Part shown: in pieces, positions 2,508 through 34,567 of the stretch
How positions within the stretch are numbered: position 1 is the stretch's first letter
Layout of the letters: each line of letters begins with the position of its first letter
Notes under the pieces: model-generated
Told to the model about the DNA's origin: nothing
The model's input: the letters and a program-made list of their open reading frames with translations, nothing else
The model's database searches: none
Sequence record: LC788706.1
Length of the DNA: 64,000 nt
Origin: Escherichia coli phage KS_S14
Reading direction: 5' to 3' (one strand)
Position numbers and translations under genes: made by a program

Positions 2508-2513
2508 AACAAT

Positions 2514-3354: not shown

Positions 3355-3361
3355 ATTTATA

Positions 3362-3592
3362 TAAATTGATGAGGAGAGATCCTCATCATAGTTCACTAAG
3401 GTATTAGCTCGACCTAGGACTGGCTGCCAAAAAGCACGATCCCTACGATTCGGGAGAAGTTCTAGATTAGTCCACTAGATTCAGCGGCAACTGAATAGTG
3501 TATTGGGTTTGCGAGATGACGCAGTTCCTTCCGCTCGAAGCGAAGGTGCTGTAGTTACGCCGAGCTAATAGCCTTAGTAAACTAAAGAATTT
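3362..3592 (+). ncRNA. promoter-driven structured RNA candidate upstream of tRNA-Ala
   Basis: Starts with perfect 7-bp hairpin gatgagg/cctcatc after the promoter; no ORF with RBS; further hairpins; ends at tRNA-Ala. Confidence 0.35.
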
Positions 3593-3671
3593 GGGGAATG
3601 GGTCTGCATGGAGTGGACACCTCGCTTGCACCGAGGACATCAGAACGGTTCGATTCCGTTATTCTCCACCA
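3593..3671 (+). tRNA. tRNA-Ala (anticodon TGC)
   Basis: Acceptor ggggaat/attctcc, anticodon stem cctcg/cgagg with loop ctTGCac, T-arm aacgg-ttcgatt-ccgtt, CCA. Confidence 0.6.
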
Positions 3672-3676
3672 AATAC

Positions 3677-3753
3677 GCGTGATTGATGGAATTGGCATAC
3701 ATACCGTCCTTAGAAGTCGGGTTTTGAGGGTTCGAATCCCTTGTCACGCACCA
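3677..3753 (+). tRNA. tRNA with TAG anticodon (Leu-type) but short variable region, atypical
   Basis: Acceptor gcgtgat/gtcacgc, T-arm gaggg-ttcgaat-ccctt, CCA; anticodon loop ctTAGaa; irregular D region. Confidence 0.45.
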
Positions 3754-3878
3754 AATTTGATGGTCAGAGTAAATTAAACCTACTATCTCGGTTGAGCTGT
3801 TTTAATGGGTTCGAATCCCAGCGAGGCGTAACTGCCTGGTGTGATAGAGGCATCATTCCACTAACATTGGAAAAACTA

Positions 3879-4109
3879 ATGAAACGAAAATTAAAAAAGT
3901 CTTATATAATTAAGATAAATAAGCTACGAAGTAGGGCAAAAGGATGGCCACTTCGAATATTAATTGCGGATAACCATACTAGATACCATGCGGAACAACG
4001 TCATTACAAACAGTGGGAGTCATACTGCCGCTCAAAAGCAGGTCGTTTAGATGGATCTTATGAGTTTCTATTTGGTAAGAAGCCTACTAGAGTAGCTTTA
4101 GGTAATTAG
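3879..4109 (+). CDS. small basic protein (76 aa)
   Basis: In-frame ATG inside ORF-track entry 3741..4109, whose upstream part is tRNA-like sequence; Lys/Arg-rich. Confidence 0.35.
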   Translation: MKRKLKKSYIIKINKLRSRAKGWPLRILIADNHTRYHAEQRHYKQWESYCRSKAGRLDGSYEFLFGKKPTRVALGN

Positions 4110-4114
4110 TACTT

Positions 4115-4205
4115 GGAAGAGCAAATCGAATTGGCGACGAAAACCGCTTGGAAAGTGGCTGACTGGTAAAACGGCTTGAGAGTTCAAATCTCTCCTCTTC
4201 CGCCA
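4115..4205 (+). tRNA. tRNA-Ser (anticodon GGA), class II
   Basis: Acceptor ggaagag/ctcttcc, anticodon loop ttGGAaa, long variable arm, T-arm gagag-ttcaaat-ctctc, CCA. Confidence 0.55.
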
Positions 4206-4217
4206 AACAATTTATAT

Positions 4218-4312
4218 GGTAGGTCAATCCAACGGCTGGCGCTGGACTCCGACTTGAAATCGGTTGATCGTAGTGATACGGTGTAAGGGTTCGATCCCCT
4301 TACCTACCTCCA
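4218..4312 (+). tRNA. tRNA-Ser (anticodon TGA), class II
   Basis: Acceptor ggtaggt/acctacc, anticodon loop ctTGAaa, long variable arm, T-arm aaggg-ttcgatc-ccctt, CCA. Confidence 0.55.
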
Positions 4313-4315
4313 AAT

Positions 4316-4451
4316 CTTGGAATATGCCGGAATTGGTAGACGGGACTGCCGAATAGGTTTACTAGGAACATCCACTCCTAGAAATATACCTTAAAAGCGG
4401 TTGAGTTAAATGGTCTAACTCATGAAGGTTCAAGCCCTTCTATTCCTTGAT
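4316..4451 (+). ncRNA. unresolved tRNA-like element (possibly class II tRNA with insertion)
   Basis: Leu-like D-loop gaattggtagac, hairpins ctagg/cctag and gagtta/taactc, perfect T-arm gaagg-ttcaagc-ccttc, no CCA; cloverleaf not resolved by hand. Confidence 0.3.
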
Positions 4452-4562
4452 ACATCAATGGCTCAAAGTGTAACGGTGCTATTTGATGCTCTTGGAAAGA
4501 CTTTCCCGACATGCGTTCGGGGGTAAGCTTCTGAGGCTAGAATAGAAGAGTTTCTGAGAGCC

Positions 4563-4682
4563 GCCACAATTGAAAATTCGTACTCGTCTTGAGCTGCGTG
4601 CAATAGGAGATAACTTGATTAGTATTCTAGAACATGCTAATTGAGGATGGTTTCGCTAACCCTGCGAGTTTTCAATTGTGGC
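4563..4682 (+). ncRNA. long-range stem structure (14-bp perfect inverted repeat) abutting tRNA-His
   Basis: gccacaattgaaaa at 4563-4576 pairs with ttttcaattgtggc at 4669-4682, enclosing about 90 nt; 3' arm overlaps tRNA-His 5' end. Confidence 0.3.
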
Positions 4683-4754
4683 TATATCATAATTGGTTAA
4701 TGATCCTGATTGTGAATCAGGCCTATGTGGATTCGAATTCCACTAGCCACCCCC
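4678..4754 (+). tRNA. tRNA-His (anticodon GTG)
   Basis: Acceptor gtggcta/tagccac, anticodon stem cctga/tcagg with loop ttGTGaa, T-arm gtgga-ttcgaat-tccac. Confidence 0.65.
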
Positions 4755-4780
4755 AAATTAACTTAAATAGGAAATAAAAT

Positions 4781-4981
4781 ATGGCTGATTTCTGCAAACA
4801 ATGCTCCATTGATATGTGGGGTAGAGATACTGGCGACTTATCTGGTCTGATTACAGAAGCCGAAGTCAAAGAAGGTTATGGTGCAGTTGTGGTTTGCGAA
4901 GGATGCGGAGTCATTCGAGTAGATCATGAAGGTAAGCGCCTTGAAGAACCTGAGCCAACCGCAATGGTTCCTGTAGAGTGA
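4781..4981 (+). CDS. small CxxC protein (zinc-ribbon-like)
   Basis: 66 aa; CKQC and CEGCG motifs; RBS present. Confidence 0.45.
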   Translation: MADFCKQCSIDMWGRDTGDLSGLITEAEVKEGYGAVVVCEGCGVIRVDHEGKRLEEPEPTAMVPVE

Positions 4982-4982
4982 A

Positions 4983-5564
4983 ATGAAATTAGAGAATTTT
5001 AAAGTAATCCCAGAATATCCAGAATACTTAATCTCTCCATATGGAGAGGTTTACTCTACTAAGAGTAATAAACTACTTACACATCATTTAGGCAGTGCAG
5101 GATACCCGTTTGTAACGTTCTATGAACAGGGTAAGAATGTTTCTGTTGTATTGCATAGATTATTGGCTAGAGTATTTAAAGATTTACCTTCGCTAGAATC
5201 TGAACTAGAGGTGGATCACAAAGATAGGAATAAATTGAACTTTACCCTAGATAATCTAGTTGTCATGACCAAGGAAGATCACAGAGTAAAAACTACACTT
5301 GAAAGAGGGCATACAGTAGGTGGTAGTAAATGTCCTTATTGTAATAAACAAATAAATTCTTCATCTAAAACTTGTTTTGATTGTAAACCTAAGAGTAGCC
5401 CTGATATTACAGCAGAGCAAATAGAATATTGGGTAATAAACTATTCATGGGTTAAAGCATCAAAAGAGCTGGGACTATCTGATAATGGTCTACGTAAACG
5501 TTATAAATCCTTAACAGGTAAAGATCCAAAAAGTATTAAGAAGAAGGTTAGCCAAGTCGGTTAA
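4983..5564 (+). CDS. HNH homing endonuclease
   Basis: 193 aa; EVDHKDRNKLNFTLDNL HNH motif and C-terminal CxxC..CxxC; 3' end overlaps tRNA-Gln. Confidence 0.65.
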   Translation: MKLENFKVIPEYPEYLISPYGEVYSTKSNKLLTHHLGSAGYPFVTFYEQGKNVSVVLHRLLARVFKDLPSLESELEVDHKDRNKLNFTLDNLVVMTKEDHRVKTTLERGHTVGGSKCPYCNKQINSSSKTCFDCKPKSSPDITAEQIEYWVINYSWVKASKELGLSDNGLRKRYKSLTGKDPKSIKKKVSQVG

Positions 5565-5617
5565 GGCTGGGGTCTCTGAAATCCTGATCAGTGGTTCGAA
5601 TCCACTACCTTCTGCCA
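5542..5617 (+). tRNA. tRNA-Gln (anticodon CTG)
   Basis: Acceptor agaaggt/accttct, anticodon loop ctCTGaa, T-arm agtgg-ttcgaat-ccact, CCA. Confidence 0.55.
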
Positions 5618-5623
5618 AACAAT

Positions 5624-5701
5624 TGGGGATTAGCTTAGCTTGGCCTAAAGCTTCGGCCTTTGAAGTCGAGATCATTGGTTCAAATCCAATATCCCCTGCC
5701 A
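5624..5701 (+). tRNA. tRNA-Gln (anticodon TTG)
   Basis: Anticodon stem tcggc/gtcga with loop ctTTGaa, T-arm attgg-ttcaaat-ccaat, CCA; 1-72 mismatch. Confidence 0.55.
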
Positions 5702-5708
5702 AATAATC

Positions 5709-5784
5709 GCGGTTAAGCACACGGGTTGTGCCGCAGGCCTTCCAAGCCTCGCTGAGTAGGGTTCGATTCCCTCTAGCCGCTCCA
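5709..5784 (+). tRNA. tRNA-Gly (anticodon TCC)
   Basis: Acceptor gcggtta/tagccgc, D-stem gcac/gtgc, anticodon loop ctTCCaa, CCA. Confidence 0.6.
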
Positions 5785-5800
5785 ACTTTAAGGAAACACT

Positions 5801-6022
5801 ATGCACGTTTTTGAGTTTCGTAATAAGAGTACTGATAAGCGAGTTATCATTATTGGAGAAACATATCGAGCATATGAACAAACTGACGGCTCTGTTATCT
5901 TGAATGATGAGAAAGGAGGTTTTAGCTTTTATCCAGAAGAAACGTATGAAGAATTTCGTACTAAGTTTCTTTTACCAGACTGGCTAGCAGTAGCCGAGCA
6001 ACGAGAATCCGAAGATGGCTGA
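5801..6022 (+). CDS. hypothetical protein
   Basis: 73 aa ORF with AAGGAAA RBS. Confidence 0.5.
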   Translation: MHVFEFRNKSTDKRVIIIGETYRAYEQTDGSVILNDEKGGFSFYPEETYEEFRTKFLLPDWLAVAEQRESEDG

Positions 6023-6179
6023 TAACCTAAAATTAAAGGTTGACAAACAAAAGAAATACGTTGAGATTGAATTAGGCGAAGAACGCTTAAAGCTAACTTT
6101 CGAGTTTCTTCAGCAGTTGGCAATGACAGTAATGTCAGATAAATCCCCTGTATTTGAAAAAGAAATTCCGTTGAAATAA
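6015..6179 (+). CDS. small hypothetical protein (54 aa)
   Basis: ATG overlaps stop of upstream gene; below ORF-track cutoff. Confidence 0.35.
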   Translation: MADNLKLKVDKQKKYVEIELGEERLKLTFEFLQQLAMTVMSDKSPVFEKEIPLK

Positions 6180-6189
6180 CGGGTTTATT

Positions 6190-6264
6190 GCTCCTAAAGC
6201 ATTGCTGGTGATGCAGTTGCCTTGTAAGCATCTGAACCGGGTTCGATTCCTGGTGGGAGCACCA
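6190..6264 (+). tRNA. tRNA-Thr (anticodon TGT)
   Basis: Acceptor gctccta/tgggagc, D-stem gcat/atgc, anticodon loop ctTGTaa, T-arm ccggg-ttcgatt-cctgg, CCA. Confidence 0.6.
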
Positions 6265-6279
6265 AATTTAAAAATTCAT

Positions 6280-6308
6280 TTGCTTTCTCTCTTATTTATT
6301 GCTATAAT
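6280..6308 (+). promoter_or_regulatory. sigma70-type early promoter (TTGCTT-17-TATAAT)
   Basis: Consensus hexamers; downstream ATAAATTAATGAGAGG box then RBS and ATG at 6339. Confidence 0.6.
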
Positions 6309-6338
6309 ATTTATATAAATTAATGAGAGGGAAACCAA

Positions 6339-6629
6339 ATGAAACGTTATCTTTCTGTAGTATTCCAAACTGGTGGCCAAAGGTACACCTATGAATTTCC
6401 ATCTTCTTGGAAAATCAAAGAGGGTGATCAAGTAGTAGTGCTAACACCGCGTGAAGGATATAAAGTAGTAACGGTTAAACAAGTATTTCCAAAAGATCAT
6501 GAACCAGCTAAAGGCATCCGCTATAAGATGATTCATGGTGTGGTTCGTCAAGTACCACGAACTGAGGTAGAAGTAGATAAGGCTGGAGAAACTAAATTCC
6601 ATTATACTTCTTACTTAGACAGTGTGTGA
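6339..6629 (+). CDS. hypothetical protein
   Basis: 96 aa ORF immediately after consensus promoter. Confidence 0.5.
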   Translation: MKRYLSVVFQTGGQRYTYEFPSSWKIKEGDQVVVLTPREGYKVVTVKQVFPKDHEPAKGIRYKMIHGVVRQVPRTEVEVDKAGETKFHYTSYLDSV

Positions 6630-6644
6630 TGTAAATATTTTAAT

Positions 6645-6721
6645 GCTTCGGTAGCTTAGCGATCTAAAGCACTCGGCTGATAACCGAGAGATCGGGGGTT
6701 TAAATCCCTCCCGGAGTACCA
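6645..6721 (+). tRNA. tRNA-Ile (anticodon GAT)
   Basis: Acceptor gcttcgg/ccggagt, anticodon stem ctcgg/ccgag with loop ctGATaa, T-arm ggggg-tttaaat-ccctc, CCA. Confidence 0.65.
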
Positions 6722-6818
6722 AATTTAGGAATTAAGACTATGCGTCCAGGAAAGTTTAAAAAAAGCTAATTGGTCTAAAGAGTATAAAGAATACTTACTT
6801 AGTCTAGTAAAACATAAC

Positions 6819-6894
6819 AGTTAGTTGGCAGAGTGGTTATGCACCTCCTTCATACGGAGCGACTACAGTGGTTCAAATCCACTACTAACTACCA
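6819..6894 (+). tRNA. tRNA with CAT anticodon (Met or Ile2)
   Basis: Acceptor agttagt/actaact, anticodon stem ctcc/ggag with loop ttCATac, T-arm agtgg-ttcaaat-ccact, CCA. Confidence 0.55.
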
Positions 6895-8760: not shown

Positions 8761-9052
8761 GTTTATTATTGCATTGATGGTTTCGGCAGTTAGTTTCGGT
8801 TCTCTAGCATCTACCAAAGTTTTTATGAAAAATGGCAATGTTAAAGTACAACAGAACGGCATTATTACCGAGTATGGTAAAGTTCGTGATGTTAAGGAAC
8901 GTAACGGCAAAGTAGAAATATATACTAATAAAAACTTCTCTACTCCGGCTGTTACTGTTAGCAAACGTGGTGGGATAACTACTCAACGTACTAATAGCTC
9001 TAGTTCTTTTACTTGTCGTTATGATTGCGACTTTGAAGGTGAAGATGAATAA
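8753..9052 (+). CDS. secreted or periplasmic protein with N-terminal signal peptide
   Basis: ATG overlapping upstream stop; N-terminus MNKFIIALMVSAVSFGSLAST is signal-peptide-like. Confidence 0.45.
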   Translation: MNKFIIALMVSAVSFGSLASTKVFMKNGNVKVQQNGIITEYGKVRDVKERNGKVEIYTNKNFSTPAVTVSKRGGITTQRTNSSSSFTCRYDCDFEGEDE

Positions 9053-9440
9053 TTTAGACCCTAGAATTAAATTTGCAATTACAGAAATCCAAGATCAAAT
9101 TGATGAGGACTTCACTGTTTGGTCAAGGTCTGGTAATGGAGAATATTGCCAGCTTTATAGCATGAAAATGGGTATCTCAATTGAGCTTAATATCAACTCT
9201 GAAGGTAGAGTAGAAGCCCAACCTATGTTTAGTATTCCAGGCTTCTCTGGATTTGTTGCAGGTATGAAATTGTGTCTACCAAATAACCATCTTCATCGAG
9301 TTATTTGTCAACTAGAGACTATTAAACACTTCTTACCAGAAGATAACATTAATGACCACTACCATGAAGTAGTAGCAGCTCATATGATGAAAGAATGCAA
9401 ACGTCGGAGAGAAGAACGTGAAAAAGCTAAACATCAATAG
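9045..9440 (+). CDS. hypothetical protein
   Basis: In-frame ATG with GAAGGTGAAG RBS inside ORF-track entry 9021..9440. Confidence 0.45.
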   Translation: MNNLDPRIKFAITEIQDQIDEDFTVWSRSGNGEYCQLYSMKMGISIELNINSEGRVEAQPMFSIPGFSGFVAGMKLCLPNNHLHRVICQLETIKHFLPEDNINDHYHEVVAAHMMKECKRRREEREKAKHQ

Positions 9441-9714
9441 CACAGTGCAGATTCCAGCAACTAAGGATATTTTAACATTCCTACGTAGTGAAAACACTCA
9501 GTTTTGGCACGACTATATTCAGGAAAATAAAAATAATCCAGATATAGTGGCTTTTGCCAAAACCCGTATTGGGGAATACAAAGATCCAGAAATTAAAGAT
9601 GGCATGATTACTATGCAGTTATGGATAGCTATGAAAACATTTGGACCTACTATGAGTTTAGGATTTGCCCCTCTGTTTACTGATATTCTAATTAAGGAAA
9701 AGGATCTGAAATGA
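9418..9714 (+). CDS. hypothetical protein
   Basis: 98 aa ORF, overlapping-start arrangement. Confidence 0.4.
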   Translation: MKKLNINSTVQIPATKDILTFLRSENTQFWHDYIQENKNNPDIVAFAKTRIGEYKDPEIKDGMITMQLWIAMKTFGPTMSLGFAPLFTDILIKEKDLK

Positions 9715-9995
9715 TTATCTCTCCATTTGCTCTTTGGTTCGTCATTGGGTCTATAGTTGCTATTTACAGCTTGATTGATGATCTGTATATCTCTAAGAAC
9801 AAAGATGTACTTTTATATGTTATACATAAAACACGTCCACTAGATCTAGCACCTCTTGACGATAAAACACTATTAAGATGTGGTATGTCTGTGCTATTTA
9901 TTATGGATATTCTGCTAGGACCAGCATCTGTGTTTTTCTTTTATAGAAAAACTCGTAATATGAAAAAATTTAAAGCTGAAATGCAGAATACCTAA
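9711..9995 (+). CDS. small membrane protein
   Basis: 94 aa; two hydrophobic segments. Confidence 0.45.
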   Translation: MIISPFALWFVIGSIVAIYSLIDDLYISKNKDVLLYVIHKTRPLDLAPLDDKTLLRCGMSVLFIMDILLGPASVFFFYRKTRNMKKFKAEMQNT

Positions 9996-10105
9996 AGAAC
10001 TCGCGTAGGACCGAGTTGCGTCACCTGCAACTGTTACGGATAAGGGGCACGACTCCCTTAGTGCGGTAAGTGGTGAGGTGGCTGCTAGCCCTAACTGGAG
10101 ATAAT

Positions 10106-10450
10106 ATGACTATATTACTAATTCTTGTTACAACTTGGTTTTTAATTGGTGCTGGGTATGCAGTAGCTGTACTTAGACATTTGGACGAATATTCTGCTGA
10201 ATGGTTCATCAAATACCTTCGTATCGACAACAAGGAACATGAATTTAAAGATGAAAAGCAGAAAAAGGCAGTAGAGAAAATGACAGCCAAAGAATGTTTA
10301 TTCTACATGCGTATTATAGGATTCTTTGGGTTATTAATTGCTGGCCCAATTGGTTCTACTATTGCTCCGTACAAAGAAACAGTTGCCGACATCAAATTAT
10401 GGAGAAATGCAGGGGTACTACGCAAAGCTAGAGAAACTAATATTACATAA
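10106..10450 (+). CDS. membrane protein
   Basis: ATG with GGAG RBS; hydrophobic helices. Confidence 0.45.
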   Translation: MTILLILVTTWFLIGAGYAVAVLRHLDEYSAEWFIKYLRIDNKEHEFKDEKQKKAVEKMTAKECLFYMRIIGFFGLLIAGPIGSTIAPYKETVADIKLWRNAGVLRKARETNIT

Positions 10451-10495
10451 GATTGACACTAAGTCAACTTACTAGCAAAAGCAAATAATGACAAA

Positions 10496-10529
10496 GCCCA
10501 GCCTGCACTTTTGCGACTGGGCTATTTTT
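10496..10529 (+). terminator. rho-independent terminator
   Basis: Stem gcccag...ctgggc followed by TATTTTT. Confidence 0.55.
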
Positions 10530-10544
10530 GTAATAAAATTTTAG

Positions 10545-10573
10545 TTGCATAGATGCCCAAACTTTTGTATAAT
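10545..10573 (+). promoter_or_regulatory. sigma70-type promoter (TTGCAT-17-TATAAT)
   Basis: Hexamers with 17-bp spacer upstream of ORF 10605. Confidence 0.5.
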
Positions 10574-10604
10574 ATACTCATAGATTGAGGCAATAGGATT
10601 AAAT

Positions 10605-21707: not shown

Positions 21708-22309
21708 TGACTTTTAATGCGCAACAATCTATTCAAGTAGTGCCAGATCATGAACTGAACACATGGGATTATAGCTTTAAAGATTTAACCGCTACTGTAC
21801 AATTTAAATCTATGAAGCTAACATTTGCACACACTGACCTTAGAGCATGTAAAGGTCTTGAGGATAAGCTCGAAGATGCTCGCAAGATTTTTGGTAAGGC
21901 TCGCATCCCAGCTGATAATCTAATTAACGCATTAATCGATGCAGGGTACAAACTTGTGAAGACTGAGGTGAACCGCCCTAGTACTCCAGTGACTATTAGA
22001 GATCCGTGGCAGTCAGGGACAATCGCAATGCTGAATAAATCATCGGATTTGCACAATGTTCCTTGTGGGGGTGTGATAAGTAGTACGCAGTCATATAAGT
22101 TTGGGGAAGATTACGGCCCTTCTGTACAGTTGAAACATACTCAAGAAGCTTTTGAATCTGATATGCGAAGCGTAGCACCTGCGGATGCTGAAGGTTTTAG
22201 AAGTCCCATCTATGTTACTCACTTTAATAATCTTAGGCCTGGGAGTATAAATGATGCTATCCTTGAAGCGTTGGGAGCTGCTATTAATGAAGATAAGAGG
22301 AGTAATTAA
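21707..22309 (+). CDS. hypothetical protein
   Basis: 200 aa ORF. Confidence 0.5.
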   Translation: MTFNAQQSIQVVPDHELNTWDYSFKDLTATVQFKSMKLTFAHTDLRACKGLEDKLEDARKIFGKARIPADNLINALIDAGYKLVKTEVNRPSTPVTIRDPWQSGTIAMLNKSSDLHNVPCGGVISSTQSYKFGEDYGPSVQLKHTQEAFESDMRSVAPADAEGFRSPIYVTHFNNLRPGSINDAILEALGAAINEDKRSN

Positions 22310-23034
22310 TGAGTATAAAAAAGAATTTAGCAGAGATTATTAAGTTAGCTAGAGCTTGTAATGGAAAATGTGTTTCTCAGCTTAATGAACTAGAAGCACA
22401 TGCAGTAGCATTTTGTGCAGAGTTTTATCCTGCATACCTTAATGCTAGTGGGCAACCTAAATATAATAAGGATGCCGAAGAAGTTACGTTAGCTCCTTCA
22501 TATATTAGCTTGCGTCGTTTAATTCAAACCGTTGATCCTACTATTAAAGGATTCTCAGCAGATTCATTCCACGTCTTTGCAGATAAAGAACTCCCGTATT
22601 TTAAAGAAGGAAATGCAAAGTCATGTTTAGAATGTTATCCTAATATACTGATGATTCCTCAAAAGCAATGTAAATACGATCATCTTCCTAGACTTACAAA
22701 GAAAGTAGCACCACCTTATTCTTCTCTATCTGAATTAAAGCTAGGAATTGTATCTACACTTGCGCAGATTCATCTAAGTATAGTTGACGACTCAACAACA
22801 TCTAACCCTATTCTAGATGCTGCTCACTTTGAAATTTTACGTGATCCTGAACAAGCTAGAAAAGTTGCTAAGTCTGTTAAGTTTGATATATCAACAATTC
22901 TTGACACTAAACAAGAAACTAGACCTAGAGGAAGTGTAGATTATTCTGCGCTAAATTCCGAGTCATCTTACTTAGCAACATTCCTTTTCATGGCGTCAAA
23001 AGGGGTTATTCTAAAGGTTAATAAAGATGGATGA
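22309..23034 (+). CDS. hypothetical protein
   Basis: 241 aa ORF. Confidence 0.5.
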   Translation: MSIKKNLAEIIKLARACNGKCVSQLNELEAHAVAFCAEFYPAYLNASGQPKYNKDAEEVTLAPSYISLRRLIQTVDPTIKGFSADSFHVFADKELPYFKEGNAKSCLECYPNILMIPQKQCKYDHLPRLTKKVAPPYSSLSELKLGIVSTLAQIHLSIVDDSTTSNPILDAAHFEILRDPEQARKVAKSVKFDISTILDTKQETRPRGSVDYSALNSESSYLATFLFMASKGVILKVNKDG

Positions 23035-23755
23035 TTTACGTGCTGAAATTAATAAAAAGTTACGAGAGGAAGCCCGGAGGTTTCCTCTTAAAAACTTTTT
23101 GAAGTCAAATGGCTCTACTAATATAACGAAGATTAGGCAACTTCACCCTGACTTCCAACAAGAGGCCTTAAACCTTATCTTTATTAGGAAAGCTTTAAAA
23201 GTCCAGAAAGAAGAGTATGGGTATGAAAGAGTTAATTATAAGACAGCCAATCAGTTAGTAGAGATATGGTGCTATAAACATAAAGGATACTTTATGCAAA
23301 CTGCTAGATCTCACCTAGATGGGCACGGTTGTTTACAATGTGCTAGGGAAAGCAACCTAAATACACCTATCGAGAAACCGGAGGTAGAAGAAGATGTTCA
23401 GTCCCCCACATATCTCTATATCTTCTCTAATAAAGATCAGTCTAGGAAGAAATTAAAGACAAAGATTGGGGTTTCTAGAGAGCCACATCAAAGGTTTAAG
23501 AATCTAGAGTATGATAAATTGCGTGTGCCGGGTTTTGAAGATATGGAAGTATTTGGTATCTACCAGTATAAGAAAGGATCGAAAGAACTCGCTTACAAAA
23601 TAGAACACCAAGCACATAAATTTTTCGAGAATAAATTTGCTAACCATTATAAATTCGATGGAGCAAAAGAGATATTCAACATTAAAGCTGTAGAGGCAGA
23701 AGAATATCTATTAAGTCAAGGTTGCATAAAAATTTACCCAACTCCAAACTCATGA
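23027..23755 (+). CDS. zinc-ribbon plus T5orf172/GIY-YIG-like domain protein
   Basis: 242 aa; HxGxxxxxHLDGHGCLQC zinc-ribbon-like element and C-terminal YLYIF...KIGVS...EIF block. Confidence 0.5.
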   Translation: MDDLRAEINKKLREEARRFPLKNFLKSNGSTNITKIRQLHPDFQQEALNLIFIRKALKVQKEEYGYERVNYKTANQLVEIWCYKHKGYFMQTARSHLDGHGCLQCARESNLNTPIEKPEVEEDVQSPTYLYIFSNKDQSRKKLKTKIGVSREPHQRFKNLEYDKLRVPGFEDMEVFGIYQYKKGSKELAYKIEHQAHKFFENKFANHYKFDGAKEIFNIKAVEAEEYLLSQGCIKIYPTPNS

Positions 23756-23782
23756 CAAAAATTTAAAAGTAACGAAATCTGC

Positions 23783-23813
23783 TTGACATTCGTGAGAATA
23801 ATGTGTTATAATA
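23783..23813 (+). promoter_or_regulatory. sigma70-type promoter (TTGACA-19-TATAAT) facing the non-coding repeat field
   Basis: Perfect hexamers; no ORF for about 1.7 kb downstream. Confidence 0.45.
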
Positions 23814-24175
23814 ATCTCATAGATTAAAAACATCAACTTGTTTTTACCTCTAGGCCGTAGATTTACATCATTCCTCGTAGGAAAACACTTGATGACGGTT
23901 CTGTTCGCAGGTTCTCGTCAATTGTTCTTCCACACCGAGACTTAGGAGGATGTATCAAATCGCACGCGCCTAGAGGGGCTAACTCTCATGAAATGGGGGT
24001 ATATTAACTTTTAAATAACTGATAAATATTTAAAGGCAATATCTGTGTTCAAGATGATACACTTGTTGCCGCCCATCTGCTAGGATGGCACAACACTTTC
24101 TTCTAGACTCCTAAGTTTTTATGAAAACTCTAGTCAACTCAGGTGGTTTTCATGTTCCTAGAAACTTCAGCAATA

Positions 24176-24213
24176 GGCGGTTTAATACAGGGCGGTTATG
24201 GGGAGGGCGGTTA
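24176..24213. repeat. three direct copies of GGCGGTT(A/T)
   Basis: aggcggttt, gggcggtta, gggcggtta within 38 bp. Confidence 0.5.
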
Positions 24214-24256
24214 TTTCTAGGAGACATTTTTTGAAAACACATTTCCAGAAATTACT

Positions 24257-24856
24257 GTCGGATTTGCACACTGACATAGGTTTAAAAACTGGTCGGATTT
24301 GCACAATCGCCTAAGTTTTTAGGAACTCTTACTCTCCTGAAAATAGCAGCATTATTTCGGGCCGAAGGCCCGTGATTGCCTGAGTTTTTAGGGCCACAGA
24401 AATTTTCACTTGTCAAGCTATTTTGCCCCATTTTGCTAATAAAATTTTACTTTATCTGCACTTACCTCAAATTAACCCAAATCTTCTCAACTCTTCCCCA
24501 AAATCCCCGCAAATCAGGTGCTCCGCACCAAACATGCGCCCCTCTCGCAGTTCCCCCAAGTTTCTCTCGATCTCTCAACTTCTCCCCAAACCCATACAAT
24601 CACACACCATCTAATCGAAGTCACAAAAATCTTGTCGGATTCGCACAAATAAACCCATGTCGGATTTGCACATATTCTAGCTAATTCCACAGGATTCGAA
24701 CGCAGTTCGTGATTGCTGGAGTTTTTAGGAAAATTCATTGTCGGATTTGCACACTATAAAAATTTTTCGGGTCGGATTTGCACACTACCAAAAATTGTCG
24801 GATTCGCACATACACGCCCACGCGTAATCCATGGGGGCAAATGTCGGATTTGCACA
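24257..24856 (+). repeat. iteron-like array: 8 direct copies of GTCGGATT(T/C)GCACA
   Basis: Copies at 24257, 24292, 24634, 24659, 24740, 24771, 24797, 24843, same orientation, irregular spacing; several flanked by AGTTTTTAG motifs. Confidence 0.7.
24470..24600 (+). repeat. C-rich, G-poor strand-asymmetric tract
   Basis: About 130 bp with almost no G on the + strand. Confidence 0.45.
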
Positions 24857-24884
24857 AAAGCGCAGGGCAATTGCCCTGCTCGCC

Positions 24885-25070
24885 TGAATGCGAATGATAA
24901 TGAGAATAATTATCATTTAAGAAGTGGAATGCAAATGATAATTATTCTCATTTACGAAAGGGGGGTGAGAACTATTCAGGAAGTGAAACGATTCTCATTT
25001 AAAAAGTGAAATGATTATCGGTTAGACAGTGGAATGCGAATGATAATGATTCTCATTTAAGAATGGAAGT
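24885..25070. repeat. cluster of about 60-bp direct repeats each containing AATGAGAAT/ATTCTCATT palindromes
   Basis: ggaatgc(g/a)aatgataat three times; attctcattta four times; long AT-rich inverted repeats. Confidence 0.6.
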
Positions 25071-25090
25071 GAGAAACACTGTTATTTAAG

Positions 25091-25172
25091 TTATCAACAG
25101 ACTTATCAACAGCACGATTTGACTTGACAGAATCCTAGCCATTTTGAGGCGTTATTAACAGACTTATCCACA
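25091..25172 (+). promoter_or_regulatory. DnaA-box cluster
   Basis: TTATCAACA at 25091 and 25104; TTATCCACA at 25164. Confidence 0.5.
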
Positions 25173-25182
25173 GCTTATCCTA

Positions 25183-25198
25183 CTGTATATTTATACAG
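25183..25198. promoter_or_regulatory. SOS-box-like palindrome CTGTATATTTATACAG (left copy of inverted repeat)
   Basis: tactgtatatttatacagta resembles LexA consensus CTGT-N8-ACAG; partner at 28927. Confidence 0.4.
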
Positions 25199-25393
25199 TA
25201 TTCCTATGTAGTGAATAATTCTAATATAGGCCTAAAACGTCCTGAATCGCATTCTAACGCGTTTAATTTTGGTGGGGATACTAAAACAAGGGCAAAATTG
25301 GAGGAGGCTTGAAAATTAGTTAGCACGCTAACGATCACACAAGGCGACACGTAACACCCTAATCATTAGCAGGCTAACCATCGCGGGCGCGGT

Positions 25394-25416
25394 CAAATGA
25401 GAATGATTCTCATTTG
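25394..25416. repeat. 23-bp perfect palindrome CAAATGAGAATGATTCTCATTTG
   Basis: Perfect dyad; same core as the 24885-25070 repeats. Confidence 0.55.
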
Positions 25417-25566
25417 AAAATTGGGGGCACTCCCTGATAGTTGCGCCCCTTGATTATTATAGTAGTGGGCAACCGTTACGCTTTGCCCACTCCCCCCACT
25501 CATCTTGATGCCTAGACTTGCGACGGCGTACTAAAAACCGTTTATACCAGTGATTAAACCATCGTT

Positions 25567-25770
25567 TCATAAATCCTCCTCCGGTAGTCGGTGCGTGATC
25601 TTTTCCTCCTCTCCGTAGGAATCGACCAAATGTTGGTAGTAACCATCGTGATCATAAATCACTTTATCATACTCGCCACGCTCGACCGCTTGCCGGTTTT
25701 CCGGCGTATCGGGCACGTAAAAAACATCAACCATTGTACTAATTTTGGTTACAACAATTTTATTGCTCAT
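25567..25770 (-). CDS. hypothetical protein
   Basis: Start moved to second ATG with AGGGG RBS; last gene of minus-strand block. Confidence 0.4.
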   Translation of the reverse strand: MSNKIVVTKISTMVDVFYVPDTPENRQAVERGEYDKVIYDHDGYYQHLVDSYGEEEKITHRLPEEDL

Positions 25771-25870
25771 AATAACCCCTAGTAAATATATTTTTGCCAA
25801 TAGTGGCAAACGTTATCGCCACCAGCGGAATCATTTGCAGCCTCAACATTACCAGCGAAAATATATAATC

Positions 25871-26215
25871 TCATTGCGCCACCTTTCGAAACGCTGTTTC
25901 AATACTATCCGCAGTGGATTGAATATACGCTCCTTTCATTATCAGGCGCTCGGTACATACCTTACGGAAGATATTAATAAAATCATCTTCATTTTCTGCA
26001 ATTAATGCTTCACCCATAACCTGAACGTCGCAAGATGCAAAGGTCAAAAATTGAAACGCTAGTTCACGGGCAACGACCGCATTGATTTTATAATGCGCCT
26101 TGCCCTCATAAATATTAACAACGCCCTTGTAAGCTGGGGAAAGCTGATTTAAGTAATTTGCTAACAATGCAGGACGGCAATTAGCAACAAAACGATTGCC
26201 CTCATAAATAACCAT
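25871..26215 (-). CDS. hypothetical protein
   Basis: 114 aa ORF in minus-strand operon. Confidence 0.45.
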   Translation of the reverse strand: MVIYEGNRFVANCRPALLANYLNQLSPAYKGVVNIYEGKAHYKINAVVARELAFQFLTFASCDVQVMGEALIAENEDDFINIFRKVCTERLIMKGAYIQSTADSIETAFRKVAQ

Positions 26216-26338
26216 TTGACAGCCTCCCGATTAGATAGCCAGATAAAAGCATAAAAATCCCCAATGAAATGGGGTCATTTTTAAATAAGGTGGCGGTAAA
26301 ACCGCCAACCATTGCAAGGATAATAATGGTAACGCTTT

Positions 26339-26551
26339 TCATAGTACCCCACGAAACGCAGCGTAAAAGGTGGCAAAGTATTTAACCGTTTCAGCGATCA
26401 CGTTGCCGCGCTTATCAAATTTTTTCTCAGTAACACGAAAGGCATTTTTGTTACGTGCTACATATTCGATTTTACAATCTTCACGCTCGAACGTGTTAAC
26501 ATCCACCAGCTTAAAGCCTTTCGAACGTGCAAGGGAAACGTTACGAATCAT
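26339..26551 (-). CDS. hypothetical protein
   Basis: 70 aa ORF. Confidence 0.4.
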   Translation of the reverse strand: MIRNVSLARSKGFKLVDVNTFEREDCKIEYVARNKNAFRVTEKKFDKRGNVIAETVKYFATFYAAFRGVL

Positions 26552-28660: not shown

Positions 28661-28926
28661 TTGTTCGGCCTCCTCGTTAATCGGTGAGTGAATGATAAAG
28701 GTAATTTTCTAGCATAGGCAAATATTATTTTACCTTTTTATTTTCCTTGCCTAGCGTCTAATTTTATGCTAACCGCGCAGCGGTGTAATAAAGAGCAAAA
28801 CACGGCGAAGCCACCAGGCCGCAGCATTGAGGCTTTACTTTACTATTACCTTGCAGCGTTTAGCTCGTTAGAATGCGATTTAGGCCGCTTAAAATTGATT
28901 GCAGTTGTTAACACTACCTTTTTACC

Positions 28927-28966
28927 CTGTATATTTATACAGTGGAATAACCTGTGGATAAGTCTG
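28927..28966. repeat. right copy of about 40-bp inverted repeat with SOS-box-like palindrome and DnaA box
   Basis: Reverse complement of 28927-28966 matches 25159-25198 at about 34 of 40 positions. Confidence 0.55.
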
Positions 28967-29361
28967 TGCAAAAGTCCTTATATCGCCGCCTATCGTGTCA
29001 AGTTATTTCGTGCTGTGGATAACGTTGTGGATAACCTAAATGATAGTGCTTCTCACTTAGCTAGATGATTTCTTATAGTTATTATTTCTCATTAATTTAT
29101 ATGTATATTATATATCATGAAATAGTTAGTTAGCTAATGAGATTTTTCGTGATTAATAGTCTGCTAATAGTTTACTCGGTTACAGTCCACCAGCATGATT
29201 ATCATCCTAGCAATTATTATCCTGCTATCTTTCCGATGCATACTAACAAATAAAAGTCAATTAATTTATTTCATAAAATAAGTAGTTATCCACTGGAAAA
29301 TAAAAGTCAAGTGGATAACTAGGAAAATTTCATTTTTGCTTTTGGGGATAAGTTATCAACA
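28953..29361. promoter_or_regulatory. DnaA-box cluster in divergent control region
   Basis: TGTGGATAA at 28953, 29024, 29036; TTATCCAC at 29286; GTGGATAAC at 29311; TTATCAACA at 29353. Confidence 0.5.
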
Positions 29362-29766
29362 AGGCTAGAATGCACCTAAAACGCCCTAGAACGCGATGAA
29401 AGTTTTAGCCATGCCATTGCATTGCCTACCCTCGTTTATCGCTACCACGAGCTTTTTAGTTTTTGTCAAGTAGGGCAAGGCAAATATAAATGAAAAAATT
29501 ACTTGCCAACCTGCTGGGTTTTATGGTATTCGCGCGCCCGTTTCTTTTAATTTTAGGCCGTCGCCGCACGCCGTCCGGTGAGTTTTTGTCTTTACATTTC
29601 TTTACAAAAATAAGGTTGCGCCATTTTCGGGAATCCCCTATTATTTATCTCGTAGGGCGGCAATGACGAACTACACGGCGGGAAGTTTACCGCCACGCTC
29701 TTTAAAAATTGGGTACATCTTAAAGCCTATCGGCGGTAAACTTATACATTATAAGGAATCGACGAT

Positions 29767-30553: not shown

Positions 30554-30961
30554 ATGACTAACGCAAAAACCGCAAAATTCGCATGGAATGAAGAAAACAC
30601 TCAGAAAGCTGTTACCATGTATCAGCAGTTAATCAATGAAAACGGTTTAGATTTCGCAAATAGCGACGGTCTGAAAGAGATTGCGAAAGCAGTAGGCGCG
30701 GCCTCCCCCGTGTCAGTTCGCTCAAAATTGACCAGCGCGAAAGCATATCAAAAAAGCGATAAGCCGCGCAAAGTAGGCGGCGGTAGCTCTGTGCGTAAAG
30801 CTCATTATGTACGCGTTATCGCTAAACATGCTATTGATTCCGGCATTATCAAAGACGCCGACGATCTGGCAAGTCTGGAAAGTGCAAAACTTGAAACGCT
30901 GGACGCAGTAGCGCAACTGTTAGGCGTTGCCGATGAAGTAAAACAAGCCGCAGGCGAATAA
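30554..30961 (+). CDS. pre-early protein, possibly A2-like
   Basis: 135 aa; immediately upstream of the A1-like gene; assignment by position and size only. Confidence 0.35.
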   Translation: MTNAKTAKFAWNEENTQKAVTMYQQLINENGLDFANSDGLKEIAKAVGAASPVSVRSKLTSAKAYQKSDKPRKVGGGSSVRKAHYVRVIAKHAIDSGIIKDADDLASLESAKLETLDAVAQLLGVADEVKQAAGE

Positions 30962-31339: not shown

Positions 31340-33010
31340 ATGATTATTTCCGCAGAAAAACAAACCGTTATCCTGAAAATGGCCGCTGACTTTAATTTCT
31401 ATGGTAAACGTCTGCGCGCTACTAAACTGGAAGTCTGCGACGATATATCAAAAGCGGTCTACGATACTACTAAACACTCCACCGCTATCTGCGACTGGCT
31501 GGAAGCAAATAAACCAGCTAAACCGAAAGCTGCAAAAGTAGCAAAAGCCATTAAAAACGATGAGCGCCCAGAAGCGGCGGGAATTGTTTCTAGTACGGTT
31601 GAGCAATGGGAAGTAAAACAGGGTAAACGCTTTATTATTACGTCGATTCAGAATAATACTTTCCCGCATAAAAACTTTTTGTCCTCGCTTGAACAATACG
31701 CTAAATATATCGGCGCTGATTTGCTTGTTTCTAAGTATATTTATAATAAAAACGGCTTCCAGAATGGAGAAGGTGCAGACGGTATCAAATACGATCCCGC
31801 ATTTGATAAATATATTTGCAGCAAAAACGTGTTTTTAAATAACCGCCGCTTTGCTTTCATGGCTGAAATTAATGTTTTGCCCACCGCAGATTATCCGCTT
31901 TCAGGATTCGCAGAAACTGCAACGGCTTTAAATATTGAAGGGCTGGCAATTGGTCATGCTAAAATTACCGCCGAAAGCGTGCCAGCTCTCAAAGGTGAGG
32001 TAGTGCGCCGCATGTATTCAACCGGAACGGCGACGTTAAAAAACTATATCCAGCAAAAAGCAGGGCAAAAAGCCGAGGCGCTGCATAACTTCGGCGCGCT
32101 GATTGTTGAGTTCGACGAGGACGGGGAATTTTTTGTTCGCCAGCTTGAAACAATGGATGAAAGCGGGGTGTTTTATGATCTGAACGTTTGCGCTACTCCT
32201 GCCGGATGTTATGAAACATCGGGACATGTTTTAGGCTTGCAATATGGCGACATCCACGCAGAAAAATTAGATGAGGAGTGCGCCGCCGCATCTTGGGGGC
32301 ATGGTGACACCTACGGGCTTGTGGATATTCTTAAACCAAAATATCAATTCGTCCATGACGTGCATGATTTTACATCACGCAACCATCACAACCGCGCATC
32401 CGGTGTATTCCTAGCAAAACAATACGCCGCCGGACGTGATAAGGTATTAGATGATCTTATCGATACGGGGCGCGTATTGGAATCAATGGAGCGCGATTTT
32501 TCTCAAACGATCATCGTAGAATCAAACCATGATTTAGCTTTATCCCGTTGGCTGGATGATCGTAACGCCAACATTAAAGACGACCCTGCAAACGCGGAAC
32601 TATATCACCGCCTGAATGCCGCTATTTACGCCGCAATCGGTGAGCATGATGAAACGTTTAACGTGCTTGATTATGCGCTGCGCAAAGTTGCAGGTTGTGA
32701 GTTTAACGCCATTTTCCTAACGACTGACCAGTCTTTCAAGATTGCAGGCATTGAATGCGGCGTACACGGTCACAATGGCATTAACGGCAGCCGTGGCAAT
32801 CCTAAACAATTTAAGAAATTGGGCAAGTTAAACACGGGGCATACGCATACCGCCAGCATTTACGGCGGTGTATATACCGCTGGCGTGACTGGTAGTCTGG
32901 ACATGGGTTACAACGTTGGCGCGTCTAGCTGGACTCAAACGCATATTATTACCTATGCAAACGGTCAACGCACTTTGATTGACTTTAAGAATGGTAAATT
33001 CTTTGCGTAA
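31340..33010 (+). CDS. A1: A1-like pre-early protein, calcineurin-like metallophosphoesterase (putative nuclease)
   Basis: 556 aa, the size recalled for T5 A1; motifs GDIHAEK, HDVHD, ESNHD, GHNGINGSRGN, GHTHT. Confidence 0.6.
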   Translation: MIISAEKQTVILKMAADFNFYGKRLRATKLEVCDDISKAVYDTTKHSTAICDWLEANKPAKPKAAKVAKAIKNDERPEAAGIVSSTVEQWEVKQGKRFIITSIQNNTFPHKNFLSSLEQYAKYIGADLLVSKYIYNKNGFQNGEGADGIKYDPAFDKYICSKNVFLNNRRFAFMAEINVLPTADYPLSGFAETATALNIEGLAIGHAKITAESVPALKGEVVRRMYSTGTATLKNYIQQKAGQKAEALHNFGALIVEFDEDGEFFVRQLETMDESGVFYDLNVCATPAGCYETSGHVLGLQYGDIHAEKLDEECAAASWGHGDTYGLVDILKPKYQFVHDVHDFTSRNHHNRASGVFLAKQYAAGRDKVLDDLIDTGRVLESMERDFSQTIIVESNHDLALSRWLDDRNANIKDDPANAELYHRLNAAIYAAIGEHDETFNVLDYALRKVAGCEFNAIFLTTDQSFKIAGIECGVHGHNGINGSRGNPKQFKKLGKLNTGHTHTASIYGGVYTAGVTGSLDMGYNVGASSWTQTHIITYANGQRTLIDFKNGKFFA

Positions 33011-33832: not shown

Positions 33833-34567
33833 ATGAATAAAGCTATTATGAATATTTCCCGCAGCTTCCCGCATATTTCCCGCGTCATGATTTGGGATTT
33901 AGACGGCACTATCATTAATTCTTTCCACCGCGTAGCGCCTTGCTTTGATAGCGAGGGCAATTTAGATTTAAATAAGTATAAAAATGAAGCGTGTAAACAT
34001 CATTTAATAATGCAGGATACATTATTACCATTAGTTGAATACATGCGCCAGTGCATGAACGACGCAAATACTTTAAACATTATTTGTACCGCTCGACTAA
34101 TGAGCAAGTCGGACTATTATTATTTGCGTAAACAAGGGTTGCGCGGTCGTGGGGATAGTAATATCCGCGTTTTTTCCCGTGATACACTACACAAATATTT
34201 TGAGGCTGATAAAGTTAGCGAGATATACCACAGTAAGGACGCAGTTTATAAATCTTATTATTTTGAATTATTTAAACAGTTATATCCGAACGCTGATTTT
34301 ACAATGATTGATGATCATAAAGGTGTATTATCAGCGGCGGCATCATACGGATTTAAAACGCTGGACGCGCAAGCCGTTAACGATATTCTATCAATCGGCG
34401 TGGCATTAATAGGTGAAACCTTTATTGATGAATCCCTCGATGATGATAATGATTATCAATTCCTAGCCGACCGTTTAAAATTATGTTGGGAAGGTATGAC
34501 CGAGGAAGAACGCGCAGAATATAGTTGCAGCCCGCAACAATATATTGAGAAATTAAAAGTTGCGTAA
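33833..34567 (+). CDS. dmp: HAD-superfamily 5'-deoxyribonucleotidase (Dmp-like)
   Basis: 244 aa; N-terminal IWDLDGTI (DxDGT HAD motif); size recalled for T5 Dmp. Confidence 0.55.
   Translation: MNKAIMNISRSFPHISRVMIWDLDGTIINSFHRVAPCFDSEGNLDLNKYKNEACKHHLIMQDTLLPLVEYMRQCMNDANTLNIICTARLMSKSDYYYLRKQGLRGRGDSNIRVFSRDTLHKYFEADKVSEIYHSKDAVYKSYYFELFKQLYPNADFTMIDDHKGVLSAAASYGFKTLDAQAVNDILSIGVALIGETFIDESLDDDNDYQFLADRLKLCWEGMTEEERAEYSCSPQQYIEKLKVA

Follow-up and report, generated by a model that had tools for sequence, protein, structure and literature searches.

What does a bacteriophage keep in a gene-free gap of about 1.8 kb that is crowded with repeats and palindromes? This question is raised by positions 23756-25560 of the window, as we call the whole stretch of 64,000 nt of Escherichia coli phage KS_S14 (record LC788706.1, one strand) that was analyzed; the last + strand gene before the gap stops at 23755 and the first - strand gene behind it at 25567. 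An initial annotation had suggested a counterpart of the injection-stop region in the terminal repeat (TR) of phage T5, or else a replication origin or a partition-like site. The first of these suggestions proved right, as the region can be aligned base by base with T5 9049-10600, and this T5 stretch is annotated as injection stop signal (iss). For the two others no specific support was obtained, and there is no Rep gene nearby. As judged from the alignment, it is very likely that the region is the ortholog of T5 Repeat Region 3 carrying the iss, that it lies across the junction between the TR and the unique early-gene DNA, and that it represents a composite of cis-acting sites and not one element.

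Identity with T5 Repeat Region 3

The window derives from a T5-like phage and is oriented in reverse to the standard T5 map. A megablast search with the region retrieved 474 phage records, all T5-like, 147 of which cover at least 80% of it. This BLASTN-type comparison, as proposed in the initial annotation, reveals T5-like homology, and the concern that the repeats might not be conserved in related phages clearly fails, as hundreds of T5-like records keep them. Aligned pairwise with T5 AY587007, the region is collinear with T5 9049 to about 10600, including the stretch 9194-10409 that identifies Repeat Region 3, and the identity amounts to about 83% of the columns in this alignment and to about 91% within 24850-25260. 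All annotated T5 features of AY587007 can be transferred to the window except for copy 9 of direct repeat D (DRD9). The records AY543070 and AY692264 label the homologous stretch "injection stop signal (iss)" and mark the nick (7.9% nick in AY543070). The same T5 stretch is described as Repeat Region 3 and compared in 25 phages by Davison 2020 (bioRxiv 10.1101/866236), and this description agrees with the region element by element. The 14-mer iterons, which at first had seemed to match no described element, are the T5 "direct repeat D", copies 1-8 in AY587007; as in Repeat Region 3, the series spans the end of the TR and is accompanied by DRC and DRE.

The elements follow each other in the order known from T5: palindrome D, IRD' and IRC' with their paired DnaA boxes and 51 bp between them, DRC/DRE, palindrome J with the GCGC nick site, DRD, DRA in the G-rich tract, the end of the repeat, and DRD copies 7 and 8. 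Differences concern the number of DRD copies in the region, which is nine in T5 and eight in the window, with T5 copy 9 residing in a 46-bp stretch that the window does not contain. T5, in turn, is devoid of a segment of about 115 bp (about 25325-25440), and the long-hairpin allele and the neighboring gene differ between the two.

As in T5, the region is found at the inner end of the long TR, between the pre-early genes (dmp, A1 and A2 in the TR) and the early genes. The T5 long terminal repeat ends at 10139, which corresponds to 24391 in the window, and T5 base 1 corresponds to about 34690; this gives a TR of about 10.3 kb (24391 to about 34690) with ends placed by homology. Beyond about 34690, the window runs directly from T5 base 1 into homologs of the right-end unique genes of T5, and the source assembly therefore holds the TR once, in collapsed or circularly permuted form. 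The original placement of the region within the terminal repeat is valid for 24391-25560 only; the left third, 23756-24390, is unique DNA with a promoter and a long hairpin.

The view that the region has no credible open reading frame (ORF) can be maintained. The largest ORFs inside the gap (102, 98, 74 and 63 aa) match no PHROG family, and no coding sequence is annotated in the homologous stretch of the three curated T5 records AY587007, AY543070 and AY692264. The region, its repeats and its DnaA boxes are already known: according to Davison 2020 they were sequenced in 1987, they are annotated in AY587007 and AY543070, and they are discussed by Davison 2020, with citation of Heusterspreute et al. 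1987 and Wang et al. 2005 for Repeat Region 3 and the iss. As a discovery the region adds little, and the possibly new leads are a LexA-grade core and a promoter-hairpin unit. The region is the only candidate cis element for the two-step transfer of T5 DNA, and the comparison of relatives narrows what to test.

Conservation of the layout

T5-like loci were retrieved independently of the tested elements by scanning IMG/VR with the 14-mer, and 26 distinct loci were aligned. In 23 relatives, 24040-25400 are mostly 70-100% conserved, as compared to 0-60% in the flanking coding DNA. The non-coding layout is under stronger constraint than the neighboring genes and is subject to strong purifying selection. 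The same order of elements is kept in Klebsiella (Sugarlandvirus), Pectobacterium-like, Serratia and Vibrio T5-like phages, beginning with the promoter, the long hairpin, the cut-site hairpin with its T-run, the C-rich tract and the iterons, and continuing with GCGC, the AT-rich repeat module, a DnaA pair, a spacer of 51-53 bp, the second DnaA pair and a CTGT-N8-ACAG palindrome.

This comparison separates universal from lineage-specific parts. The cut-site hairpin, the iterons, the DnaA pairs, the LexA-grade palindrome and the promoter-hairpin unit belong to the former, and the AT-rich Fur-like palindromes to the latter. The DnaA pairs and the palindrome are nearly unchanged across genera, as expected for sites that are read by proteins shared across Gammaproteobacteria. 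In Vibrio, the iteron sequence has changed to GA(A/T)T(C/T)CGCACT, a drift that points to a phage protein evolving along with it.

The DnaA-box module and palindrome D

DnaA boxes are present as initially described, although their number is four and not three: one is a consensus box (TTATCCACA, 25164) and three have one mismatch (25091, 25103 and 25152). They form two same-strand pairs with 3-bp gaps, and the spacer at 25107-25157 measures 51 bp, which is also the value obtained for T5 when counted in this way. The Poisson probability of finding four boxes in 82 bp is about 5e-6 per stretch, or about 0.004 after scanning the window. Over the whole window DnaA boxes are not enriched (85 found vs 85.2 expected), and only the clustering and pairing are non-random. 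The arrangement is the one by which IRD'-spacer-IRC' is recognized, that is, two DnaA/DnaA* pairs, a fixed spacer of about 52 bp and an inverted partner in Repeat Region 2, and it is kept in Klebsiella, Serratia and Vibrio phages. A 147-nt inverted repeat (25067-25213 vs 28912-29058) brackets a 3.7-kb - strand operon.

The second repeat field, at 28661-29489 and especially 28908-29058, is located between divergent pre-early operons and corresponds to T5 Repeat Regions 1 and 2. Its - strand carries three DnaA boxes without mismatch (28953, 29014 and 29026). In Klebsiella phage KpGranit (MN163280, locus 2556-3446), the gene adjoining the repeat region is found on the opposite strand as compared to its orientation in the window and in T5. 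In view of this and of the 147-nt inverted repeats at the flanks, it may be asked whether the right-hand pre-early cassette has been inverted or replaced.

The SOS-like palindrome that had been noticed from the start is palindrome D of T5 and matches the LexA consensus at 19 of 20 positions, with 0.01 matches expected by chance in the window even at 3 mismatches. For scoring, a LexA matrix in the style of the heterology index was built from 24 E. coli operators. Palindrome D scores 0.7-1.0 in this matrix, compared to 0.3-9.7 for the 24 operators and 9.7 for the next unrelated site of the window, and its inverted copy CCCTGTATATTTATACAGTG at 28926-28945 scores 5.8. The likeness to the E. coli SOS boxes, TACTG(TA)5CAGTA, comprises the CTGT-N8-ACAG core and the flanking TA, and the score is similar to those of umuDC, sbmC and dinD. 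Palindrome D differs from these boxes in that it does not overlap a good promoter and sits in a virulent phage that, as described in the T5 literature, destroys the host chromosome. Among the 23 distinct loci fetched with the 14-mer (DRD) probe, 22 contain it with at most 2 mismatches, every variant retains CTG...CAG, and it is the most conserved 20-mer. Given its top-grade score, palindrome D can be considered a candidate site of LexA-operator grade. The searchable literature does not mention LexA or Fur sites here; a prior description in the closed primary papers (Wang 2005, Heusterspreute 1987) is possible.

Pausing of DNA transfer

Once about 8% of the T5 DNA is inside the cell, its transfer pauses (Davison 2020); the stop would then be within or close beside the AT-rich palindromes and the DnaA-box module (24886-25200). 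The estimated shear point of T5 first-step-transfer DNA (9618) maps to about 24911, that is, into the AT-rich palindromes and just before the DnaA module on entry. The inner part 24886-25200 would accordingly be the best candidate for the pause element, and its universal core may consist of the two DnaA-box pairs 51 bp apart followed by the LexA-grade palindrome. It has been proposed that membrane-bound DnaA holds the DNA at Repeat Region 3 (Davison 2020). We extend this DnaA model with the proposal, possible but rather doubtful, that abundant DNA-binding proteins of the host might settle on the universal core and retain or label the incoming DNA when transfer pauses. If true, a 60-year-old problem of two-step injection would be tied to specific host proteins that can be tested.

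Several points weigh against the reading of the region as an iss-carrying composite that acts in this way. The individual DnaA boxes are less conserved than palindrome D, and two pairs with at most 1 mismatch are present in only 7 of 23 loci. There is no promoter with at least 10/12 matches at 25181-25200, so LexA has no evident regulatory target there. The TR ends and the nick of the KS_S14 phage are placed by homology alone. The other genome end (about 34690) has no iterons, and the iterons are not adjacent to terminase genes. A protein bound to DNA that is already inside the cell is no obvious block to further entry. According to the summary by Davison 2020, ejection in vitro through FhuA goes to completion, and a 2023 paper on the BF23 genome states that experimental studies on the functional role of these sites are lacking.

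The promoter and the long hairpin

The outward flank of the region would be an early transcription unit that comprises a consensus promoter and a long hairpin and terminates at the hairpin and T-run of the cut site. The perfect promoter of the initial annotation indeed matches at 12/12 positions, and it ends at 23812, one base earlier than first given. Its hexamers are conserved in the alignment of T5-like phages, with TTGACA-17-TATCAT at the same place in T5, TTTACA-17-TACAAT in Serratia phage Slocum and TTGACT-17-TATAAT in Vibrio phage VCPH; the annotation of the T5 records AY587007 and AY543070 does not contain it.

The hairpin segment behind the promoter (110-135 nt) cannot be aligned between phages, while its flanks are conserved; the window and T5 share 42% identity there, as compared to about 91% further right. 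Eight alleles that are unrelated in sequence nevertheless fold as a single long imperfect hairpin each, with z-scores of -3.2 to -8.8 relative to dinucleotide shuffles. Substitutions within alleles comprise 12 compensatory double changes, 10 single changes that keep a wobble pair, 8 breaks and 25 changes in unpaired bases; in the allele termed A, 8 of 9 substitutions fall in unpaired bases. The alleles are distributed as a mosaic, since an Epseptimavirus is 72% identical over the whole region, yet 92% in the hairpin allele of the window. This mosaicism may be due to the unrelated gene next door, which is homing-endonuclease-like in the window (Table 1) and a different one in T5, where an unrelated gene of 294 aa takes the position of 23027-23755; the hairpin allele changes together with this neighbor.

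These observations can be explained if the left third is the gene for an abundant early non-coding RNA, a transcript of about 160-200 nt with the long hairpin as its core, in which selection acts on shape and not on sequence. We consider this a serious possibility that falls somewhat short of being probable. The promoter is kept from Escherichia to Vibrio phages, the eight unrelated alleles fold alike, and compensatory and wobble-keeping changes (12 and 10) outnumber the 8 breaks. In 7 of 9 alleles, folding is better for the + strand than for its complement, and a classic terminator, as read from the sequence, directly follows the hairpin in Serratia phage Slocum. However, a palindrome acting at the DNA level would give the same pattern. 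The strand-asymmetry test is weak, the Vibrio allele forms the basal stem only (z -1.3), and neither an Rfam match nor a significant antisense target in the window was obtained: the sole match in a scan of 23000-26500 against Rfam 15 is at chance level (E 0.5), and the best antisense match of the hairpin within the window has 14 nt (E 0.04, not significant).

G-U strand asymmetry had been considered as a means to separate an RNA from a DNA hairpin and was discarded. When each strand is refolded, G-U pairs are equal in number (32 vs 33), A-C mismatches are fewer on the + strand (1 vs 8), and a weak bias in energy and A-C mismatches toward the + strand is all that is left. The most stable local fold of the window after GC correction (-54.6 kcal/mol per 140 nt) is found elsewhere, at 47761-47900 (+), directly after a TAA stop at about 47754-47756, and it holds the 14 nt complementary to the 5' arm of the hairpin. 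No other module of promoter and long hairpin was found in the window, and 47761-47900 has no nearby promoter.

A DNA-level role would have a parallel in T7. Its concatemer junction comprises pac signals, the promoter phiOR, which reads into the TR, and a "hairpin end" intermediate, and the same applies to T3. The T7 hairpin end is located beside the junction, downstream of the promoter, and has been proposed as a step in duplicating the repeat. Shared features are precise direct TRs, a strong promoter in unique DNA reading into the repeat, and a hairpin palindrome between promoter and boundary. Differences are the length of the repeat, 160-230 bp compared to 10 kb in T5, and the host sigma-70 type of the promoter in the window. 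Two RNA systems offer analogies for the promoter-hairpin module. Like phi29 pRNA, the module would be a structured unit of RNA size beside the genome end expected to be packaged first, with its shape kept and its sequence not. Like T4 PeSL, it combines an early sigma-70 promoter with a stem-loop in a mosaic cassette that is swapped between related phages, but the hairpin is much longer and stands after the promoter instead of before it. The promoter-hairpin unit may be a candidate structured RNA, perhaps an undescribed one, or a DNA palindrome. It is not mentioned in the searchable literature, with a prior description in the primary papers (Wang 2005, Heusterspreute 1987) being possible.

Both leads might be real, although this is less likely than not. 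The first would be a structured RNA from the promoter at 23783-23812, with a hairpin of 110-135 nt that retains its shape although the sequence is replaced wholesale, and with its gene directly at the genome end expected to be packaged first. The second would be a universal core of the pause region that consists not of DnaA boxes alone but of a fixed module of DnaA pairs and LexA operator, which is present twice, in inverted orientation, in the DNA that enters first.

The terminase cut and the iterons

The mature genome end, made by the terminase, is placed by homology at GAGTTTTTA/GGG (the slash marks the cut), between 24390 and 24391. In T5 and Spc35 (as annotated) and in Sw2 and Klebsiella phage KpGranit (as determined by PhageTerm), the end is at the identical homologous base, ...GTTTTTTA/G(A/G)NCCACAG, and the cut is offset by 1 nt in SIA3lw and by about 3 nt in Serratia phage Slocum. 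A short GC hairpin precedes the cut by 10-12 nt, and KpGranit keeps this hairpin with a different sequence. The boundary is thereby exact and cross-validated, and it can be used for collapsed assemblies such as that of KS_S14. The idea that both TR ends carry the same cut motif was rejected: GAGTTTTTAGG occurs also at 35077, but T5 base 1 is at about 34690, 390 bp off, and the left-end sequence is unrelated.

The eight same-orientation copies of the 14-mer at 24257-24856 were all confirmed as exact + strand copies, with 0.29 expected by chance. They flank the cut in one orientation, two outside (86 and 134 bp away) and six inside the TR (243-466 bp away), an arrangement also kept around the cut in Klebsiella and Serratia phages. 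An isolated ninth copy with one mismatch (ATCGGATTTGCACA) is found inside a gene at 22042-22055 and corresponds to copy 10 of T5 direct repeat D. The three GGCGGTT(A/T) copies on the unique side, 15 bp apart, are present as described, and GGGCGGTTAT is conserved in T5, Spc35, Sw2, KpGranit and Slocum. AGTTTTTAG has exact copies at 24314, 24383 and 24720 (n=3); the fourth motif that had been counted, at 24114, reads AGTTTTTAT. Behind the cut, the C-rich tract noted earlier contains the most C-skewed 130-nt stretch of the 64 kb. It has 38% C and 7.5% G over 24440-24625, and Vibrio and Serratia phages possess equivalent C-run tracts. The nick-site sequence A/GCGCAGGG and palindrome J are conserved vs T5; the GCGC of the nick site adjoins DRD copy 1, and palindrome J is terminator-like on the - strand.

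This arrangement suggests that the region could mainly be a packaging site of pac or cos type, where the iterons, the hairpin before the cut and the C-rich tract behind it recruit or position the terminase on concatemers, and where the pause is a secondary or separate property of the DnaA/AT-rich module. The cut is inside the region, as expected for such a site, and is conserved to the base, and the iterons at -86, -134 and +243 to +466 point in one direction. The left end is injected first, hence the right end is expected to be packaged first. Repeats on either side of the cut are characteristic of P1 pac and of SPP1 pacL/pacR, and in lambda cosB they lie beside it. The likeness to the lambda cosB R sites, the P1 pac hexamers and SPP1 pacL/pacR is in short same-orientation repeats by a sequence-specific cut, found on both sides in the window. 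The distances in the window are larger (86-134 bp and 243-466 bp), the terminase genes are not adjacent, and the binding motif is putative. Moreover, the other end has no iterons, and the DnaA/LexA module, the most conserved part, is left unaccounted for. We think that such a mainly packaging role is possible but on the unlikely side. A tentative and slightly better assignment concerns the iterons themselves, which may be sites for the packaging machinery at the end packaged first; otherwise, and with less likelihood, they might be sites for the pre-early DNA-binding protein A2, for which no Pfam or PDB sequence match was found.

Possible operators for host regulators

The AT-rich palindromic repeats of about 60 bp proved to be a 57-nt repeat (24905-24961 and 25010-25066) with 82% identity, together with four palindromes far above chance: AATGAGAATNATTCTCATT at up to 3 mismatches occurs 4 times vs 0.04 expected, in palindromes of the type AATGAGAAT-N-ATTCTCATT. 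GATAATGAGAATAATTATC at 24896 matches the Fur box, for which the consensus GATAATGATAATCATTATC was used, at 17/19 positions, and four 15-mers resemble the Fur 7-1-7 motif with 1-2 mismatches, most half-sites being TGAGAAT and not TGATAAT. It could thus be asked whether the region is an operator field, in which LexA, DnaA and Fur sites let the SOS response, replication and iron status control pre-early transcription, or titrate the regulators. Apart from the Fur-like sequences, the top-grade LexA score of palindrome D is in agreement with this, and so is the position of the inverted copy at 28926-28945, which overlaps the -10 element of the best promoter-like site between the divergent pre-early operons (TTAACA-16-TATATT, 28908-28935, 10/12). 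However, palindrome D in the region itself overlaps no good promoter, the few sites on a single DNA molecule are insufficient to titrate regulators that are present in thousands of copies, and the Fur-like palindromes, with their mostly deviating half-sites, are replaced in Vibrio and Serratia phages. Vibrio and Serratia hosts use the same Fur box, and T5 destroys host DNA within minutes. We therefore regard an operator field as unlikely.

Fur was accordingly downgraded as a universal factor. The AT-rich module is lineage-specific, with unrelated repeats in its place: Vibrio phage VCPH has GCAACAGTTGYC about ten times, and Serratia phage Slocum another repeat. From these sequences, a general role of Fur appears unlikely. 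A further Fur-box-like sequence, GATGATGATAATGATTATC with 2 mismatches, is found at 34439-34463, close to the left genome end and within the coding sequence of the dmp-like gene. It probably results merely from Asp/Asn codons, and T5 has a close variant in the same position. No IHF consensus site was found in the region.

Replication origin and assembly artefact as unlikely readings

Both remaining explanations are unlikely. An iteron-type replication origin as in RK2 oriV or pSC101 would make use of the DnaA boxes, the iterons and the AT-rich and GC-rich stretches, and the order of DnaA boxes, AT-rich repeats, 14-mers and GC-skewed tract resembles that of iteron plasmid origins. RK2 oriV, pSC101 and oriC share with the region the clustered DnaA boxes, direct 14-mer iterons, and AT-rich and GC-skewed segments, and the strong nearby promoter could activate an origin. 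However, no Rep gene was found among the flanking genes, which are the homing-endonuclease-like gene and small proteins without assigned function, and the iterons straddle the terminase cut, so that they are separated in mature DNA at the right end. Furthermore, older electron microscopy puts the T5 origins near the genome center, and the replication genes are not expressed from first-step DNA, both according to Davison 2020. An origin is very improbable on these grounds.

That the region is an artefact of collapsed terminal repeats can be dismissed almost entirely: the window does hold the TR once and passes from T5 base 1 straight into right-end genes, but a collapse does not create repeats, the internal repeats are short and part of one continuous collinear alignment, and the same sequence and layout recur in hundreds of independent records, among them finished T5 genomes in which the two TR copies are resolved.

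Further features

The coordinates of all features are collected in Table 1.

Table 1. Features of the repeat region and neighboring genes in the window; a slash in a sequence or position marks a cut or nick.
Feature	Position	Strand	Remarks
T5orf172/GIY-YIG-like homing-endonuclease gene	23027-23755	+	Pfam PF10544; PHROG endonuclease families; directly upstream of promoter
Sigma-70 promoter TTGACA-18-TATAAT, extended -10 TG	23783-23812	+	12/12; unique DNA, reads toward TR
Imperfect long hairpin, 132 nt	23847-23978	+	Minimum free energy -51.5 kcal/mol, z -5.6; just 3' of promoter
Highly conserved block	24040-24125		Unique side; per-base conservation mostly 80-100% in 23 relatives
Three GGCGGTT(A/T) direct repeats	24176-24213	+	At 24176, 24191, 24206; 15-bp period
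14-mer GTCGGATT(T/C)GCACA, eight exact copies	24257, 24292, 24634, 24659, 24740, 24771, 24797, 24843	+	All on + strand
Direct repeat D copies 8 and 7	24257-24270, 24292-24305	+	Unique side of cut
Hairpin GGGCCGAAGGCCC, then GTGATTGCCTGAGTTTTTA/GG; TR boundary	24359-24392	+	Cut 24390/24391
C-rich tract (G-rich on T5 + strand)	24440-24625	+	Holds T5 direct repeat A copies 2 and 3 (24466-24504)
Direct repeat D copies 6 to 1	24634-24856	+	Inside TR
Counterpart of major 7.9% nick, A/GCGC, and palindrome J	24859-24879	+	Nick 24859/24860, palindrome J 24862-24879; by homology with T5
AT-rich palindrome field (T5 DRC1-4, DRE, palindromes E-I)	24886-25066		Built on AAATGAGAAT / ATTCTCATTT; homology with T5
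IRC', 51-bp spacer, IRD'	25068-25200	+	IRC' 25068-25106 (boxes 25091, 25103); IRD' 25158-25198 (boxes 25152, 25164); ends in palindrome D
Palindrome D, TACTGTATATTTATACAGTA (CTGTATATTTATACAG), SOS-box-like	25181-25200		LexA consensus 19/20
Segment absent from T5	25316-25452		Small hairpins; perfect palindrome TCAAATGAGAAT-G-ATTCTCATTTGA (25393-25417); terminator-like hairpin for - strand genes (about 25423-25449)
A2-like ORF	30554-30961		PHROG "DNA binding protein"; inside TR
A1-like ORF	31340-33010		PHROG "DNA transfer protein"; inside TR
dmp-like ORF	33833-34567		Inside TR

The stretch of about 115 bp by which the window exceeds T5 holds hairpins of the type GTTAGCACGCTAAC, CACGTAACAC and a perfect 12-1-12 palindrome. 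In its right part, GGGCGCGGTCAAATGAGAA..ATTCTCATTTG is almost identical in Vibrio phage VCPH, and the perfect palindrome GGTCAAATGAGAA..ATTCTCATTTG (25390-25417) is common to the Vibrio phage and deleted in T5. It thus appears that T5 itself carries a deletion here.

The anti-retron factor "Rad" of T5 is a protein with its gene outside the region. At the left of the window, 398-6894 (+), a cluster of 14 tRNA genes is found, as expected for a T5-like phage.

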